DNA of 40,480 nucleotides, from positions 1-40,480 of IMG/VR virus record IMGVR_UViG_2718218098_000005; one strand, written 5' to 3'. This document shows positions 20,498 to 36,609 of this stretch, one piece after another (within the stretch, counting starts at the first letter, position 1; every line of letters starts with the position of its first letter). The notes below the pieces were generated by a model. It worked only from the letters and a program-made list of their open reading frames with translations. It did no database searches and had not been told where the DNA came from. Position numbers and translations under genes: made by a program. Source of the stretch: a virus. Taxonomy: Duplodnaviria > Heunggongvirae > Uroviricota > Caudoviricetes.

Positions 20498-20848
20498 TCA
20501 ATTGATGCGTTCGCGCGCTGTTTTTGCTTTATGGCAGGGCCAGCACAGACTCTGCAGGTTACTGTCTGCATCCGTGCCACCATGAGCTTTCGGAATGATG
20601 TGGTCCACAGTTCTGGCTTCAACGGCTCTCCCATTGCGCAGGCAGTTCTGACACAGATGATTATCACGCTTCAGTATGCGCGCACGTATGGCATCCCATT
20701 TCGAGCCATAGCCACGCTGGTGGCGACTCAGTCCGCGTTGATGCTGTACCCATCCTTCGCCACGATGTTTATCGCAGTAACCAGAACTGTCGGTGGTTGT
20801 ACCTGCGCATCCACGCTTACGGCAGGCACGTGGGATTCGTGATGGCAT
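20498..20848 (-). CDS. HNH endonuclease (terminase-associated)
   Basis: Cys-rich N-terminus and ..DHIIPKAHGGTDADSNLQSLCWPCH.. HNH motif; located just upstream of terS as in HK97 gp74. Confidence 0.85.
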   Translation of the reverse strand: MPSRIPRACRKRGCAGTTTDSSGYCDKHRGEGWVQHQRGLSRHQRGYGSKWDAIRARILKRDNHLCQNCLRNGRAVEARTVDHIIPKAHGGTDADSNLQSLCWPCHKAKTARERIN

Positions 20849-20855
20849 AAATACC

Positions 20856-21056
20856 TCATACCCTGTTCAGTTTAATGACGGGCTGATTCTCGATATGTTC
20901 TGCTGTCAGTCTGAAAGTCACTGTGACTGTTGGTAGCTCGCCTCCGCGTGACTCTGTTCTTGCGGAAAGCTGCCCTTCCAGTAACTCACCATTAACTGCA
21001 ATCCCATAACCTACGAAATGTTTACCACGATAAAGTTTTGCCAGTTGGTAATTCAT
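20856..21056 (-). CDS. Hypothetical protein (66 aa)
   Basis: ATG at 21056 with AGGAGG 6 nt upstream; no domain recognised. Confidence 0.5.
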   Translation of the reverse strand: MNYQLAKLYRGKHFVGYGIAVNGELLEGQLSARTESRGGELPTVTVTFRLTAEHIENQPVIKLNRV

Positions 21057-21142
21057 TTGCATCCTCCTGCAAAAATCCAGTTCGTGATGTGCATAAAAAA
21101 GCCCCGCGTATGTGGGGCTAATGATTGCAGGGATTTATTGTC

Positions 21143-21445
21143 TCAGTCTAATTTAATAAGTTTTACAGGTTTCTCTCCTGCATCTACGCACCAGTTGTTG
21201 TACTCATGTACAGCCCGCATCAACTCACCATCATAATGACCAACCTTCTCTACAAGATCCGTAAGCGATTGGGGATTAAATTCAACAATTTCAGGTGGGA
21301 CGAGATTCACATTCCCTTTCTGATGAAGGGCATAGACCGCAGTACGCAGATCACCAATAGCTTTCATTCGTTCAGCATAAAGGTCCTTGATCTTTTCATT
21401 GAGAATTTTGCAGCGACCAATTGCTTCATAATTCAGTTCAGACAT
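21143..21445 (-). CDS. Hypothetical protein (100 aa)
   Basis: ATG at 21445 (MSELNYEAIG) with AGGAGG 4 nt upstream. Confidence 0.55.
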   Translation of the reverse strand: MSELNYEAIGRCKILNEKIKDLYAERMKAIGDLRTAVYALHQKGNVNLVPPEIVEFNPQSLTDLVEKVGHYDGELMRAVHEYNNWCVDAGEKPVKLIKLD

Positions 21446-21527
21446 TTTGCCTCCTGTTTTCAATGGAGATATTCAGGCCAATAGCATTATCGCAGCCCCT
21501 CTCACTGAAGGGGTGCTATAATACCTG

Positions 21528-21824
21528 TTACTCAGTAACTACCGCACCTTCCGGTAATTCCATACCAGCAAATACCGGACAACCAGGATGACGATCATCT
21601 TCTGTTGCTTCCAGCATTGACTCACCAAACCACTCCGTCGTGGCGCGACCATCAGCTGCTTTGTAGTGGATCAAGTACTGGTTTTCGCCATCCGCATACT
21701 GCGCACGGGCTTTAACCTCACCCCATTCATCACTGATGCGCATCTCCACCAGTTGAGACAACTCAAACTTAAACGGAGCAGCATCAGCACCAATTACAAT
21801 CGGTTTGTTTTCTGTTTTTTCCAT
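21528..21824 (-). CDS. Hypothetical acidic protein (98 aa)
   Basis: Tandem ATGs at 21827/21824 after AGGAGA; no domain recognised. Confidence 0.55.
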   Translation of the reverse strand: MEKTENKPIVIGADAAPFKFELSQLVEMRISDEWGEVKARAQYADGENQYLIHYKAADGRATTEWFGESMLEATEDDRHPGCPVFAGMELPEGAVVTE

Positions 21825-21998: not shown

Positions 21999-22154
21999 TC
22001 AGTTCTGCATACACTGCCGAACACCGTCGACAATTTCACAGACCTGAGAAGCTGTATCGAAAAGCTGGCGCGCCTTATTCAGGCTGACGCATCCCACCAA
22101 TAAAAAAGGCACCAGTATCGCTACCAGTGCCCATTTCGCTGCCGTTCGCGGCAT
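21999..22154 (-). CDS. Small lipoprotein (lipobox LLVGC), possible lysis accessory
   Basis: Signal peptide MPRTAAKWALVAILVPFLLVG-C; directly after endolysin; alternative start ATG 22181. Confidence 0.5.
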   Translation of the reverse strand: MPRTAAKWALVAILVPFLLVGCVSLNKARQLFDTASQVCEIVDGVRQCMQN

Positions 22155-22195
22155 TCTATGTGTCCAGTGTTTTCGACTCATAACTCGCCCGGCTA

Positions 22196-22573
22196 TCAGC
22201 GTTTCAATTGGAAGTGCGGCCCGTCCTTCAGCGTTTTCCAGTCCCCGCCCCATTCGATGGCGACTCCCAGCTCTGCGGCAGCCTGCTTAAATGCCTGTGC
22301 GATTTTCTCGTACAGAGGCCAGTCCCATGACACCTGGCTGTCAACATAAGCCACAACATCCACAGCATCACCGGTCAGGTGGCGGCTGTTCATGGTCTGG
22401 CTTTTCCCTTCCGCGACCAGCTGTTTCTGGCGTTCTTTCGTGCGCAGCCCTTCCGTAATACCGAAATCAACCTCCGTCAATTCCAGCGCACGGCGAACGA
22501 CAGCAACCAGCTGTGGTTTGACGCCCTCCAGATTTTTTTTACTGCGACGACTGAATCTGAATTTACCCGACAT
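22196..22573 (-). CDS. Endolysin, peptidase M15 family (L-alanyl-D-glutamate peptidase type)
   Basis: Zn-ligand motifs SRHLTGDAVDV and DGPHFQ; RBS GGAGGTGA; follows two membrane proteins. Confidence 0.8.
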   Translation of the reverse strand: MSGKFRFSRRSKKNLEGVKPQLVAVVRRALELTEVDFGITEGLRTKERQKQLVAEGKSQTMNSRHLTGDAVDVVAYVDSQVSWDWPLYEKIAQAFKQAAAELGVAIEWGGDWKTLKDGPHFQLKR

Positions 22574-22575
22574 GC

Positions 22576-22851
22576 TCACCTCCGGAATGAAAGGATTTTT
22601 GAAACGTTCCCGCGTGCGCGTATTACCAGCACGCAGAACAGCAGATTAAGCCCCACCGCCAGCCAGTTCGCCGCTAACGGGCGACCGCACAGATAGCTGA
22701 GTGGTGCAAAGGCATACAGCAGCATCAGCAGCCAGGCCAGCCATGACATCAGCGGTTTGTGTCTGGAATCACGGCGACGATAAAAAAAGAGCGTCAGCAC
22801 GATAACCGTGCATAACGCTACATTCAGCAATCCGGGAATGTTACTTAACAT
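22576..22851 (-). CDS. Membrane protein (91 aa, 2-3 TM), holin/antiholin-like
   Basis: ATG 22851 with GGAGGAGG 5 nt upstream; hydrophobic segments; between holin-like gene and endolysin. Confidence 0.6.
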   Translation of the reverse strand: MLSNIPGLLNVALCTVIVLTLFFYRRRDSRHKPLMSWLAWLLMLLYAFAPLSYLCGRPLAANWLAVGLNLLFCVLVIRARGNVSKILSFRR

Positions 22852-23233
22852 TGCCGCCTCCTCCACCCCGCAGACGGGAGAACAGGCCGGACACCAGTGA
22901 TGCAATATCCTGCTGGTGGATGAACGAGAGAATCTTCACCGACACCACTGACACCAGCACTGCACACAGTGCGTCGACAGGCGCACCGTCAAACCCTGTA
23001 TGCTTTACCAGCCAGGATGCCAGAACCTCTGCGCCCAGCACGCCGATAATGAACGACACCAGAAAATGCGCCGCCACACGCCAGGCTGAAAGCGCCTGCG
23101 GCATCGTTGCCACAAATAACGCCCCGGCGAACGCACCAAACACAATCCCGAAATCCGTTCCGGTAAACAGCCCGAATACCGTCGCCCCGCCGAGCGCCAC
23201 AGCCGTGCCGGAACCGGATAAGGGTTCAGACAT
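22841..23233 (-). CDS. Putative holin (130 aa, Gly/Ala-rich TM segments)
   Basis: ATG 23233 (MSEPLSG) with AGGAG 8 nt upstream; first gene after terminator; multiple TM segments. Confidence 0.6.
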   Translation of the reverse strand: MSEPLSGSGTAVALGGATVFGLFTGTDFGIVFGAFAGALFVATMPQALSAWRVAAHFLVSFIIGVLGAEVLASWLVKHTGFDGAPVDALCAVLVSVVSVKILSFIHQQDIASLVSGLFSRLRGGGGGNVK

Positions 23234-23250
23234 ACTTTTTTCTCCTGTAA

Positions 23251-23274
23251 ATAAAAAAGGGCCACCAGCGGCCC
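23251..23274 (-). terminator. Intrinsic terminator immediately upstream of lysis genes (tR'-like)
   Basis: Minus strand GGGCCGCTGGTGGCCC followed by TTTTTTATTT, then RBS and holin ATG. Confidence 0.6.
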
Positions 23275-23553
23275 GTAAAAAACACCCCGTCAAAAGCACC
23301 GGCATCCGCAGATGCCCTTTGCGTGGCGTTATTTGATGCGCGCCAGATGTGGCGCAAAGAAATGAAATAAGACTTATCGGAAATTAAGGTTAATTTGAGG
23401 ATTTAAACCACTTCTGAAGCTTAGTAGTATGAACATGTCCCCGGAAGGGGGCCAATACTTATTATTCTTCATGGACTTTGTCCCGCGGTCTTAATCCGAC
23501 GACCGCGCTACTTTTCACCCTCTCGCAAATTGCTATCCAAAGGACGTTGTCCC

Positions 23554-23586
23554 ACGAGTATTCCTGGATGCTCGTGTCTTTTTTTG
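23554..23586 (+). terminator. Plus-strand hairpin + T-run (weak terminator candidate)
   Basis: CACGAG-12 nt-CTCGTG followed by TCTTTTTTTG. Confidence 0.35.
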
Positions 23587-23601
23587 TCCTGAGAAAGGAA
23601 T

Positions 23602-23627
23602 AAAAAAAACCGCCATATCTGGCGGTT
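23602..23627 (-). terminator. Intrinsic terminator within ORF-free region between tRNAs and lysis genes
   Basis: Minus strand AACCGCCAGATATGGCGGTT followed by TTTTTTTT. Confidence 0.55.
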
Positions 23628-23990
23628 GGTCAATGCAAGGGATGAATTTTTTAATTGTTATTAAACCGAGGCGTCGGGTGCCTCCCGAAGTATTCCGTGC
23701 TGTATGGATACTGTGGTTTCCCGCTAAACCGACTCTTTAAACCACCCTCGCTCTGAGGTGCGCCTCTTTGGTGCGATTTACAACACCAGAATGATGCATC
23801 ACCGACCCTGCCAGGAAATACAAAATCTCCACCGATAATGCACCATTCTGCTGTCGTAAAAAAATCAGCACTGAGGCTACACCTGGTCTCAAATCATAGC
23901 CAGAGAACAGAATGCTTTTTCAAAACAACCTGCTCCCACGTAATAAAAAATACGCCAGTGCCGCAATACAATAAGGCTTGTTTCAAATGC

Positions 23991-24065
<75 letters not shown>

Positions 24066-24068
24066 ATA

Positions 24069-24144
<76 letters not shown>

Positions 24145-24146
24145 AC

Positions 24147-24223
24147 TGGACCGCCACCGGGGACTCGAACCTCGCACACTCAACTTAAAGTGTTGACGCT
24201 CTTTCCTGATGAACTAGTAGCGG
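24147..24223 (-). tRNA. tRNA-like, probable anticodon TTT (Lys) with C33
   Basis: Acceptor CCGCTAC/GTGGCGG, 5-bp anticodon stem TCAAC/GTTGA, loop ACTTTAA, T-loop TTCGAGT, CCA encoded. Confidence 0.5.
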
Positions 24224-24224
24224 T

Positions 24225-24300
24225 TGGTGGCCCTGGCTGGATTTGAACCAGCGACCTGGCGATTATGAGTCGCTCGCTCTCACCACTGAGCTAAAGGGCC
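24225..24300 (-). tRNA. tRNA-Ile2-like (anticodon CAT; ileX/ileZ type)
   Basis: Strong similarity by recollection to E. coli ileX; anticodon loop CTCATAA; CCA encoded. Confidence 0.8.
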
Positions 24301-24498: not shown

Positions 24499-24527
24499 AA
24501 TATATGCCTTTCAATCTACTTTTGCAA
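24499..24527 (-). promoter_or_regulatory. Candidate late promoter overlapping 3' end of Q-like gene
   Basis: Minus strand TTGCAA-17 nt-TATATT; Q stop codon lies between the two hexamers. Confidence 0.4.
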
Positions 24528-25200
24528 CACTTTGCTTTGAAAATACCGCCTTTTGTTTTGAACGTGTTCTCATTACAAACAATAAAGCCTCACTATCCAG
24601 TCGGTGAAAAATGTGTTTCAATGCAACCCAGTGACGAGTAAATGTTTTGGACCAGTTTTTAGTTGTCACTCCCGCCAGTAATGCCAGCTCCTGGTATTCA
24701 TAACCTTCCCCACCAAAAAGTTCTGCTTTTACTGCCTGCGCCGCCAGCCAGATTAATTTTTTCAGGCGTTCCTGCGTTTTCCCTGCAATTTTTCTGGTAC
24801 CGGGTTGAGTATTAAATTCATTCCACGCCCACTGTGTTATCGCGATCTGATATGCCCAACAAATATTCCCGCTGTAACACCACAGCAACCAGGCTTTATG
24901 ATGTTCTTCAAGAGACAGAACAGCCCGCCGCCACGATGATGTCGAAAACTCAACCGGACTGACCAGAGGAATTGACGTCCCCTTCGCCAGCGATTGCTTC
25001 CCCGGGATTGGTGGATTATCCCGCGTTATCATTTTTCCAGTCGCTTCATCGCGGTACCGGATTTTTTTTCGCCTGTAACGCCCTGTATCGAACATGGCAT
25101 TCTCTTGCCAGGCTTCAAGCTGACCTTTTGTTGCCGCACTCAAATCAGCGGTAGCGATAATGAGCTGCTCACGCACAAACTGTAAATACTGGTTATTCAT
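24511..25200 (-). CDS. Putative late antiterminator Q (QuuQ-like)
   Basis: 229 aa; position between rusA and late promoter/lysis region as in Qin; ATGA overlap with rusA stop; family not verified. Confidence 0.55.
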   Translation of the reverse strand: MNNQYLQFVREQLIIATADLSAATKGQLEAWQENAMFDTGRYRRKKIRYRDEATGKMITRDNPPIPGKQSLAKGTSIPLVSPVEFSTSSWRRAVLSLEEHHKAWLLWCYSGNICWAYQIAITQWAWNEFNTQPGTRKIAGKTQERLKKLIWLAAQAVKAELFGGEGYEYQELALLAGVTTKNWSKTFTRHWVALKHIFHRLDSEALLFVMRTRSKQKAVFSKQSVAKVD

Positions 25201-27388: not shown

Positions 27389-27544
27389 TTACTCCTCAGG
27401 TTCGTAAGCTGTGAAGACAGCGACCTCCGTCTGGCCGGTTCGGATTCGTACCTCGCAGAGGTCTTTCCTCGTTACCAGTGCTGTCACTATGACGGTTAAA
27501 CAGATGACGATCAGGGCGATTAACATCGCCTTTTGCTGCTTCAT
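27389..27544 (-). CDS. hokD: Hok/Gef family type I toxin (HokD/RelF-like, 51 aa)
   Basis: MKQQKAMLIALIVICLTVIVTALVTRKDLCEVRIRTGQTEVAVFTAYEPEE matches HokD by recollection; single TM + conserved Cys. Confidence 0.85.
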   Translation of the reverse strand: MKQQKAMLIALIVICLTVIVTALVTRKDLCEVRIRTGQTEVAVFTAYEPEE

Positions 27545-36232: not shown

Positions 36233-36421
36233 ATGGAAACGTTATTACCAAACGTTAATACGTCTGAAGGTTGTTTTGAAATTGGTGTCACTATCAGTAA
36301 CCCTGTATTTACTGAAGATGCCATTAACAAGAGAAAACAAGAACGGGAGCTATTAAATAAAATATGCATTGTTTCAATGCTGGCTCGTTTACGTCTGATG
36401 CCAAAAGGATGTGCACAATGA
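36233..36421 (+). CDS. dicB: DicB cell-division inhibitor (62 aa)
   Basis: METLLPNVNTSEGCFEIGVTISNPVFTEDAINKRKQERELLNKICIVSMLARLRLMPKGCAQ matches DicB by recollection; ORF-track N-terminal extension rejected. Confidence 0.9.
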   Translation: METLLPNVNTSEGCFEIGVTISNPVFTEDAINKRKQERELLNKICIVSMLARLRLMPKGCAQ

Positions 36422-36609
36422 ATTCAGCATTTGCGCTTGTTCTGACAGTTTTTCTTGTTTCCGGAGAACCAGTTGATATTGCAGTCAGTGTTCACAGGAC
36501 AATGCAGGAGTGTATGACTGCAGCAACCGAACAGAAAATTCCCGGTAACTGTTACCCGGTCGATAAAGTTATTAACCAGGATAATATCGAAATCCCGGCA
36601 GGTCTTTAA
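36418..36609 (+). CDS. ydfD: YdfD-like lysis protein (63 aa)
   Basis: MNSAFALVLTVFLVSGEP.. TM N-terminus; ATGA overlap with dicB stop; synteny with Qin. Confidence 0.75.
   Translation: MNSAFALVLTVFLVSGEPVDIAVSVHRTMQECMTAATEQKIPGNCYPVDKVINQDNIEIPAGL

Follow-up and report, generated by a model that had tools for sequence, protein, structure and literature searches.

A partner-less lipoprotein at the spanin position of a phiP27-like prophage lysis cassette: a candidate outer-membrane lysis factor

Organization of the lysis cassette

We analysed a stretch of 40,480 nucleotides (nt) of the IMG/VR virus record IMGVR_UViG_2718218098_000005, called the window below, with a focus on the small lipoprotein gene at the end of its lysis cassette. 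The window covers nearly a whole prophage, from the integrase through the tail fibres, and its DNA is 100% identical to a prophage of the mouse Escherichia coli strain M19 (NZ_CP010221). Based on the open reading frame (ORF) listing and family profiles, four co-directional ORFs on the minus strand at 23233..21999 encode two holins, an M15 endolysin and a prolipoprotein. A preliminary description of this DNA, made from the sequence alone, had already read the order correctly as holin, second membrane protein, M15 endolysin and lipoprotein. The four genes, with lengths in amino acids (aa), are:

22841..23233, minus strand: holin-like membrane protein, 130 aa (PF16931 Phage_holin_8, E 2.8e-22; phrog_198 holin, E 2e-42)
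22576..22851, minus strand: second holin-family protein, 91 aa (PF05449 Phage_holin_3_7, E 1.8e-21; phrog_217 holin, E 8e-37)
22196..22573, minus strand: M15 endolysin (PF13539 Peptidase_M15_4, E 5.4e-13; phrog_465 endolysin, E 3.3e-76)
21999..22181, minus strand: prolipoprotein, 60 aa (lipobox pattern; phrog_7528, E 1.4e-38)

The first gene of the cassette, labelled 'putative holin' by PGAP, encodes a protein with several hydrophobic segments and is the homologue of phiP27 L28. The second overlaps it by 11 nt, has three transmembrane (TM) segments and corresponds to phiP27 L29. The endolysin is 125 aa long when started at the ATG at 22573 or 127 aa from the GTG at 22579. Its metal-binding residues, H-x6-D...H, were recognized by eye, and a hydrophobicity scan found no TM segment, signal or signal-anchor-release (SAR) sequence in it; it is predicted to be a cytoplasmic enzyme of the L-alanyl-D-glutamate peptidase type. 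The lipoprotein start lies 14 nt past the endolysin stop. The cassette is ~94% identical to L28-L30 of the Stx2e phage phiP27, and the PF16931 holin, the PF05449 holin and the endolysin follow gene Q in the order that defines phiP27-type cassettes. From these comparisons we identify it as the late lysis cassette of a phiP27-like lambdoid E. coli prophage.

The lipoprotein gene and its product

The precursor consists of MSRKHWTHRMPRTAAKWALVAILVPFLLVG, the lipidated C at which it is predicted to be cleaved, and VSLNKARQLFDTASQVCEIVDGVRQCMQN (60 aa). Its parts, together with an RNA hairpin that lies within the gene, are:

22181..22092, minus strand: signal peptide
22091..22089, minus strand: lipidated Cys31
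22088..22002, minus strand: mature part, 29 aa
22099..22132, minus strand: RNA hairpin with an 11-pair stem and a U-run (terminator scan)

PGAP, a 2018 spanin census and the preliminary description all chose the ATG at 22154, which gives a product of 51 aa. This length should probably be revised, since several features favour the ATG at 22181 as the true start and thus a 60-aa precursor: codon 1 is ATG in 53/53 distinct DNA versions from 90 loci (codon 10 in 43/53), codons 1-16 are under purifying selection, and a Shine-Dalgarno sequence precedes the first ATG in divergent family members. A dual-start motif (Met1/Met10) was rejected, as Met10 is not conserved. The ratio of nonsynonymous to synonymous diversity (pN/pS), a simple pairwise Nei-Gojobori estimate among related sequences, was 0.21 overall, 0.23 in codons 1-16, 0.18 in the hydrophobic core and 0.19 in the mature part, and none of the 53 DNA versions carries an internal stop. 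The ORF is a real gene under purifying selection.

Using simple hydrophobicity and pattern rules to detect TM segments and lipoboxes, we found the lipobox LLVG/C preceded by a hydrophobic core of 13 residues. At position +2, family members have V, A, T, S or G, and one has E, but none has Asp; therefore, sorting to the outer membrane by Lol is predicted according to established rules. The predicted signal thus combines a lipobox with an outer-membrane sorting signal, the combination by which the outer-membrane subunit of a spanin (o-spanin) is recognized. The signal peptide is unusually long and better conserved than any other part of the protein: subfamilies that share only about a third of the residues of their mature parts have almost the same hydrophobic core.

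The mature part comprises 29 residues with no proline and no second hydrophobic segment, and a hydrophobicity scan of the lipoprotein detected no C-terminal TM segment after Cys31, in agreement with the preliminary description, which had called the protein neither proline-rich nor C-terminally anchored. The mature part is predicted to be helical. AlphaFold2, given the 60-aa precursor and the family alignment, returned one long, uninformative helix (mean predicted local distance difference test score, pLDDT, 65). The lipobox Gly-Cys, Cys48 and Cys57 are invariant down to 37% protein identity. The latter two are spaced as C-x8-C or C-x9-C in the family, which places them 180 or 280 degrees apart on a straight helix; this geometry suits intermolecular rather than intrahelical disulfides. 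Net charge of the mature part ranges from -2 to +3 in the family, and its hydrophobic moment is not consistently above that of shuffled controls. The alleles in loci L019, L080 and L011 lack the stop codon and have C-terminal extensions of 9-12 residues (e.g. ...CLQNLSPVRAEYFAEK).

Database searches returned a small and uncharacterized family. Pfam gave no match at E<=0.1, including Rz, Rz1 and PF02402, and the sole PHROG match was phrog_7528, to which no function is assigned there. NCBIfam and PADLOC contained no match to the lipoprotein or to the accessory proteins ST_57, C_60 and C_44 described below, and a sequence profile search of the PDB yielded only chance or low-complexity matches (a designed repeat protein and a corrinoid protein). 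Among 5.8 billion clustered proteins only the small family itself was retrieved, with every member annotated as hypothetical. A profile search of 1.84 billion representatives gave 23 matches, all from the same family or fusion artefacts, and no bridge to a known family.

The hairpin at 22132..22099 folds at -22.8 kcal/mol (z -3.63; 0/200 shuffles fold as well). It resembles an intrinsic terminator and sits within the codons for the hydrophobic core of the signal peptide. Synonymous diversity is halved there (pS 0.116 versus 0.22), and the rare codons GTA and ATA within it are nearly invariant. The hairpin is kept in the Yersinia locus L090 and the metagenomic locus L175, and L176 has a different 7-bp hairpin in the same place. 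Conservation of the signal core could thus reflect the RNA, the peptide, or both. In ColE7, a terminator adjoins the gene for the lysis lipoprotein (PMC2896534).

Absence of an inner-membrane spanin

In the window, no ORF matched the Pfam models of Rz (PF03245) or Rz1 (PF06085), the same models that do find Rz/Rz1 in E. coli E10. We also scanned every ORF of >=25 aa on both strands of the 40 kb. Only one, the cassette lipoprotein, has a credible lipobox, and no annotated or intergenic ORF in the window combines an N-terminal TM segment with a soluble domain apart from YdfD and HokD of the early region. Across 93 lipoprotein loci, no ORF with an N-terminal TM segment and a soluble tail recurs between -2.6 and +2.5 kb; the matches were shadow ORFs and secreted toxins. 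The sole exception among these loci is phage GER2, which encodes a true Rz/Rz1 pair alongside a truncated remnant of the lipoprotein. A 47-aa ORF embedded in the endolysin gene (22371..22228) was rejected as a candidate, its hydrophobic start not being conserved in phiP27.

Hence, the window prophage and its relatives carry no inner-membrane spanin subunit (i-spanin). The statement of the preliminary description that none is embedded or adjacent was borne out by the Pfam search, the 40-kb ORF scan and the 93-locus scan alike. It had further named two findings that would speak against it, an Rz/Rz1 pair and membership of the lipoprotein in a non-lysis family such as Bor; profile and pattern searches revealed no such pair, and Pfam, NCBIfam, PADLOC and PDB no such family. 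We regard it as nearly certain both that the cassette is correctly identified and that no i-spanin is present.

Position of the lipoprotein gene relative to Rz/Rz1

Comparison with related cassettes indicates which genes are found where the window has the lipoprotein. In E. coli E10, the same holin-holin-M15 arrangement is followed directly by a PF03245 Rz gene with embedded PF06085 Rz1, and the lipoprotein gene lies further 3' and has lost its start and N-terminal region. Phages mEp390 and HK639, whose holin pair is 36-40% identical to that of the window, encode a small two-component spanin 3' of the endolysin, and the Serratia locus L100 has a variant holin pair and an i- plus o-spanin pair after its M15 endolysin. 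More broadly, related M15 endolysins from other species were examined in 80 loci, each species being represented by one genome; three loci were too short to judge. In at least 22 of the 77 usable loci, L100 among them, an i- plus o-spanin pair lies immediately 3' of the endolysin.

About 40 loci have accessory genes, either C_60 and C_44 or ST_57, ahead of the lipoprotein gene, and these lead to the same picture. Of two lambdoid phages, PhiR12_2 carries C_60 (87% identical) and C_44 (67%), and GER2 carries ST_57 (90% identical), in each case between lysozyme gene R and canonical Rz/Rz1. Since the same genes stand ahead of Rz/Rz1, they are not specific partners of the lipoprotein; they are followed by Rz/Rz1 in some cassettes and by the lipoprotein in others. 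Judged by gene order, the lipoprotein fills the slot that related cassettes fill with Rz/Rz1.

C_60 and ST_57 belong to phrog_1115 and phrog_4493 and have a C-terminal TM segment, C_44 belongs to phrog_4906 and has an N-terminal one, and all three occur in phiP27-type and lambda-type cassettes alike. They were rejected as cryptic i-spanins: their sole hydrophobic segment leaves almost no periplasmic domain, and their location 5' of ordinary Rz/Rz1 in PhiR12_2 and GER2 also rules them out. A role as lysis accessory factors is possible. Genes for these small membrane proteins lie between the endolysin and the spanin slot in L030 (3662..3996), L039 (3826..3999), L179 (2201..2529) and L089 (1130..1279), for example.

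Five further loci, L107-L109, L165 and L174, were binned as Saccharibacteria, Chlamydiae, Pedobacter, Exiguobacterium and Woesearchaeota. They carry proteobacterial-type M15 endolysins, some of them also Rz-like i-spanins, and are probably mis-binned phage contigs.

Distribution and gene order across relatives

Of 5426 complete E. coli genomes, 352 carry the lipoprotein gene and 386 the holin pair. The family is found in E. coli, Salmonella, Citrobacter, Cronobacter, Yersinia and a few metagenomic relatives, and the gene also occurs in Stx2e, Stx2k and LT-II toxin phages. Gene order was classified in 80 viral contigs and in further loci from Yersinia, Cronobacter, Salmonella, Citrobacter and cultured phages; as the viral loci are the closest of 287 matches, the following counts of architectures are not population estimates.

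M15 endolysin directly followed by the lipoprotein: ~45 loci
GH108 endolysin overlapping the lipoprotein start by 4 nt: L053 and the Yersinia locus L090
GH108 endolysin, C_60, C_44, lipoprotein: ~17 loci
GH108 endolysin, ST_57, lipoprotein: ~11 loci
M15 endolysin, (ST_93), ST_57, lipoprotein: ~12 loci
Other single-gene insertions between endolysin and lipoprotein: 4 loci (antisense 90-aa gene; KilA-N gene in pPE4; HNH endonuclease gene in L037)

At every locus with enough upstream sequence, the lipoprotein gene is on the same strand as, and 3' of, the holin gene or genes and the endolysin gene. This linkage is kept when the endolysin family is swapped (M15 or GH108) and when the holins change: L053 has a variant pair of 31% identity, and L176 combines a single lambda-S-type holin (PF05106) with the most divergent lipoprotein. 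The packaging and virion modules 3' of the cassette differ from locus to locus. Therefore, the lipoprotein tracks the lysis module and not the tail. The junction at 22182..22195, between endolysin and lipoprotein, corresponds to an insertion hotspot in relatives (L001, L005, L037, L066, L178 and L003), which hold there the antisense 90-aa gene, a KilA-N gene, an HNH endonuclease gene, a 93-aa gene, or Rz/Rz1 with a heptose-phosphate phosphatase gene.

One of the cultured phages, 'Actinobacillus phage vB_Apl-pPE4' (L178, PP818812.1), shows ~89% DNA identity to the window cassette, and its holins, endolysin and lipoprotein are 80-95% identical to their window counterparts at the protein level. 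Its assignment to an Actinobacillus host looks doubtful.

The phiP27 entry in the 2018 spanin census

The lipoprotein is not categorically new, as it has already been catalogued through its phiP27 homologue. In its phiP27 entry, the census of Kongari et al. 2018 lists a 'separated' two-component spanin with both subunits as singleton families, an i-spanin of 64 aa at 20348-20542 and an o-spanin of 51 aa at 20706-20861 (PMC6139136). According to the same source, the combined periplasmic length of this pair, 62 residues, is the shortest among 528 two-component systems (PMC6139136). The listed o-spanin is the homologue of the window lipoprotein. The listed i-spanin is an unannotated ORF with a TTG start (L001 3833..4027, minus strand, corresponding to phiP27 20348..20542), which lies within a ~500-bp insert between endolysin and lipoprotein and is antisense to a well-formed 90-aa ORF (L001 3771..4043, plus strand). 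The insert is present in only one other locus, L066, and absent from the window and ~90 other loci. Along its full length, the protein encoded by the antisense ORF matches phrog_36812. L066 has kept the antisense gene intact (91 aa, 46% identity), and its 'i-spanin' frame is broken to 36 aa; therefore, the phiP27 'i-spanin' is a shadow ORF. As judged from these comparisons, the two-component assignment for phiP27 does not hold, and its i-spanin entry should be withdrawn.

Phages without a recognizable spanin are also found in the surveys themselves. By its own count, the 2018 census detected no spanin in 91 of 677 phages (PMC6139136). In a survey of Stx phages, Rz was present in 277 of 279 genomes (PMC8136144), and the two Rz-less genomes appear to belong to the two Stx2e phages, which alone have an endolysin of the metallopeptidase type (PMC8136144).

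Interpretation and alternative explanations

We give about an even chance to the reading that the lipoprotein is an orphan, o-spanin-like outer-membrane lysis factor. The preliminary description had suggested that outer-membrane disruption may use a non-canonical component; this is partly supported, the comparison of spanin slots having added evidence that is positional in nature. In such a pathway, the lesion formed by the holin pair would let the soluble M15 endolysin reach the cell wall. Sec would export the lipoprotein precursor, which would then be lipidated, cleaved at Cys31 and delivered to the outer membrane, where the 29-residue helical domain would build up during late gene expression, possibly as oligomers linked by disulfides through Cys48 and Cys57. 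After holin triggering and removal of the peptidoglycan by the endolysin, the lipoprotein would destabilize the outer membrane and complete lysis, performing the job of Rz/Rz1 without a phage-encoded inner-membrane partner. Two candidate routes could lead there: membrane perturbation like that of colicin lysis proteins, with activation of the outer-membrane phospholipase A, or spanin-like bridging with a partner other than an i-spanin. The uncleaved, signal-anchored precursor of the lipoprotein itself could be that partner, and such homotypic bridging would account for the signal peptide being better conserved than the rest of the protein. That a 29-residue outer-membrane lipoprotein alone suffices for the outer-membrane step of phage lysis seems to us rather doubtful.

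Several observations weigh against a role of the lipoprotein in outer-membrane lysis. With 29 residues, the mature domain is too short to span the periplasm, and searches of Pfam, PHROG, NCBIfam, PADLOC and the PDB revealed no similarity to any spanin, colicin lysis protein or other characterized family. As its net charge lies between -2 and +3 and its amphipathicity is not consistently above that of shuffled sequences, the lipoprotein is not a cationic membrane-active peptide. Furthermore, spanin-defective lambda still lyses in shaken culture without added Mg2+, so that a cassette could persist without any outer-membrane factor. The coupling between endolysin and lipoprotein is often broken, by KilA-N, HNH endonuclease, the antisense 90-aa gene or small membrane proteins; therefore, tight coupling is not essential, and the junction behaves like an insertion site for accessory genes (morons). 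A terminator-like hairpin lies inside the gene, and the architectures were counted among close matches, as noted above.

The principal alternative, which we consider unlikely, is that the protein is a late-expressed accessory lipoprotein, encoded by a moron that merely happens to follow the lysis genes; it would be dispensable for lysis and would act in lysogenic conversion, superinfection exclusion, receptor masking or serum resistance, in the manner of T5 Llp, Cor, Bor or TraT. A small predicted outer-membrane lipoprotein with a conserved Cys pair would fit this role; T5 Llp, too, is a small lipoprotein that contains a disulfide. Accessory genes are often inserted at the junction between endolysin and lipoprotein, lambda has bor in the equivalent region, no spanin partner is present, and all databases annotate the protein as hypothetical. 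However, the gene is co-oriented with the lysis genes, begins 14 nt past the endolysin stop or overlaps the endolysin gene by 4 nt, and no sigma-70-like promoter is predicted between the two. It stays with the lysis cassette while tail and packaging genes vary, whereas a receptor-masking protein should track the tail. Moreover, it matches neither Bor, Cor nor defence families; in L039 a Bor homologue is encoded separately, beside it and on the opposite strand; and in the two loci that have both the lipoprotein family and Rz/Rz1 (E10 and GER2), only a truncated remnant of it is left.

A second alternative keeps the protein within the spanin paradigm, as the o-spanin half of a two-component spanin whose partner is not recognizable as an i-spanin and whose complex fuses the inner and outer membranes; the partner might be a holin-family protein, a host protein or the uncleaved precursor of the lipoprotein itself. 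The census lists the phiP27 homologue as an o-spanin (PMC6139136), and a predicted outer-membrane lipoprotein in the spanin slot agrees with this listing. So do its two invariant periplasmic Cys residues, which lie on different helix faces and would suit intermolecular disulfides like those of Rz and Rz1, and its long and highly conserved signal peptide. However, the i-spanin of the census is a shadow ORF in an insert that the window and ~90 other loci lack, and no other i-spanin-like ORF recurs in the window and 93 loci. The holin pair is not an obligatory partner, since L176 has a different, single holin, and the same pair coexists with ordinary spanins in mEp390, HK639 and Serratia. Two 29-residue domains would also be very short for a span across the periplasm. 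On balance, we judge this explanation improbable.

It is very improbable that the lipoprotein regulates lysis timing or endolysin activity, for example as a periplasmic antiholin or an inhibitor-like factor. Lysis cassettes often hold small regulatory membrane or periplasmic proteins, such as Lcc6 of LambdaSo, and C_60, C_44 and ST_57 are likewise uncharacterized; yet the lipoprotein replaces Rz/Rz1 rather than accompanying it, and its association with three unrelated holin types and two endolysin families argues against a specific target. Finally, we find it hardly credible that the protein is functionless and that conservation concerns only the RNA (a hairpin or terminator) and a recombination boundary where the lysis module ends. 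A stable hairpin with a U-run and reduced synonymous variation does lie within the ORF, and mosaic joints cluster just 5' of the gene, but pN/pS stays at ~0.2 throughout the ORF, even in the mature part, which is remote from the hairpin. Moreover, internal stops are absent, and the Cys of the lipobox, Cys48 and Cys57 do not vary among proteins of 37-40% identity, whose DNA has diverged.

Prophage setting and neighbouring genes

Upstream of the cassette, the following features were annotated:

23259..23274, minus strand: terminator-like hairpin just 5' of the holin start (terminator scan)
23627..23608, minus strand: second terminator-like hairpin (terminator scan)
23991..24300, minus strand: four tandem tRNA genes, Met/Ile-CAT, Lys-TTT, Thr-TGT and Gly-TCC (ARAGORN, Rfam)
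24511..25200, minus strand: late-gene antiterminator Q (PGAP annotation)

As the cassette lies 3' of antiterminator gene Q, four tRNA genes and terminator-like hairpins, we assign it to a Q-dependent late operon; the hairpins at 23259..23274 and 23627..23608 resemble the read-through terminators of such operons. The tRNA block sits between Q and the lysis cassette, where phiP27 has tRNA genes and stx2e. Only two of the four tRNA genes at 23991..24300 are present in the RefSeq annotation. The interval between the tRNA genes and the holin gene (23234..23990, ~750 bp) contains the two terminator-like hairpins and no ORF of more than 50 aa; in this slot, phiP27 carries stx2e and SE11 carries TerB/DUF3927 genes.

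On the other side of the cassette, at 20856..21824 (minus strand), three conserved genes (phrog_1935, phrog_4827 and phrog_10235) separate it from the HNH and terminase genes. We found no TM segments and no Pfam, NCBIfam or PADLOC matches in these three genes, the first of which (phiP27 L33) comes after the lipoprotein in ~40% of related loci. At 27389..27544 (minus strand) and 36233..36609 (plus strand), the early region of the prophage contains hokD, dicB and ydfD, the product of the last being annotated as 'lysis protein YdfD'. All three are toxic genes of a Qin-like early region and have no relation to the late lysis cassette.

Comparison with known systems

How spanin-less phages breach the outer membrane is the question that a partner-less lipoprotein in the spanin slot addresses, and this arrangement has no described mechanism. 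Rz1 and other o-spanins (PF06085) are likewise small lipoproteins with conserved periplasmic Cys residues, encoded after the endolysin at the distal end of a late lysis cassette. In contrast to them, the window lipoprotein has no i-spanin anywhere in the prophage, be it in an embedded, overlapped or separated arrangement. It is predicted to be helical, lacks prolines in its mature part and shows neither a match to PF06085 nor other similarity to Rz1, which is unstructured and rich in proline. Among the o-spanin entries of the census that were compared, its 29-residue mature domain is the shortest (PMC6139136).

The unimolecular spanin (u-spanin) gp11 of phage T1 provides a precedent for a single gene with an outer-membrane lipoprotein signal that replaces a two-gene spanin. 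However, gp11 has a C-terminal TM segment for the inner membrane and a long periplasmic domain, and the window lipoprotein has neither. T5 Llp, Cor and lambda Bor are also small phage-encoded outer-membrane lipoproteins, and Llp has a functionally important disulfide. Their genes either neighbour those for receptor-binding or tail proteins or are transcribed from the opposite strand by a promoter of their own, whereas the window gene follows the endolysin gene on the late strand; it lacks homology to them and tracks the lysis module rather than the tail.

A single small protein has been proposed to replace spanins in the case of the disruptin gp28 of phage phiKT (bioRxiv 10.1101/515445). The disruptin resembles cationic antimicrobial peptides and is not a lipoprotein, in contrast to the window protein, which is a predicted lipoprotein with a net charge of ~0 and no consistent amphipathic moment. 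Since neither charge nor hydrophobic moment was supportive, we rejected a disruptin-like, cationic-peptide reading. To our knowledge, the disruptin is the sole alternative to spanins described so far.

In size and format, the lipoprotein agrees with the colicin lysis proteins (PF02402), which have precursors of ~45-60 aa and lipidated mature peptides of ~28-30 residues that are sorted to the outer membrane by Lol. With 28 mature residues, these proteins reach the outer membrane by Lol and activate phospholipase A; on their own they permeabilize the outer membrane and cause quasi-lysis, and their over-expression kills the cell (PMC2896534). Conservation of their signal peptide goes along with a functional role (PMC2896534). 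In contrast, the window lipoprotein has no sequence similarity to them (no PF02402 match at E<=0.1); it is encoded in a prophage late operon and not in an SOS-controlled colicin operon, and is predicted to be helical with two Cys residues where the colicin lysis proteins have a Gly/Ser/Gln-rich mature part.

The cassette is common, its host is genetically tractable, and the lambda Rz/Rz1 complementation platform allows a direct test. If it acts on its own, the lipoprotein would be smaller than any other known outer-membrane lysis factor, would bear on toxin release from Stx2e phages, and would represent a third class of outer-membrane-disrupting lysis proteins beside spanins and the disruptin. 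Moreover, should it act like the colicin lysis proteins, it would provide a mechanistic tie between phage lysis and bacteriocin release.

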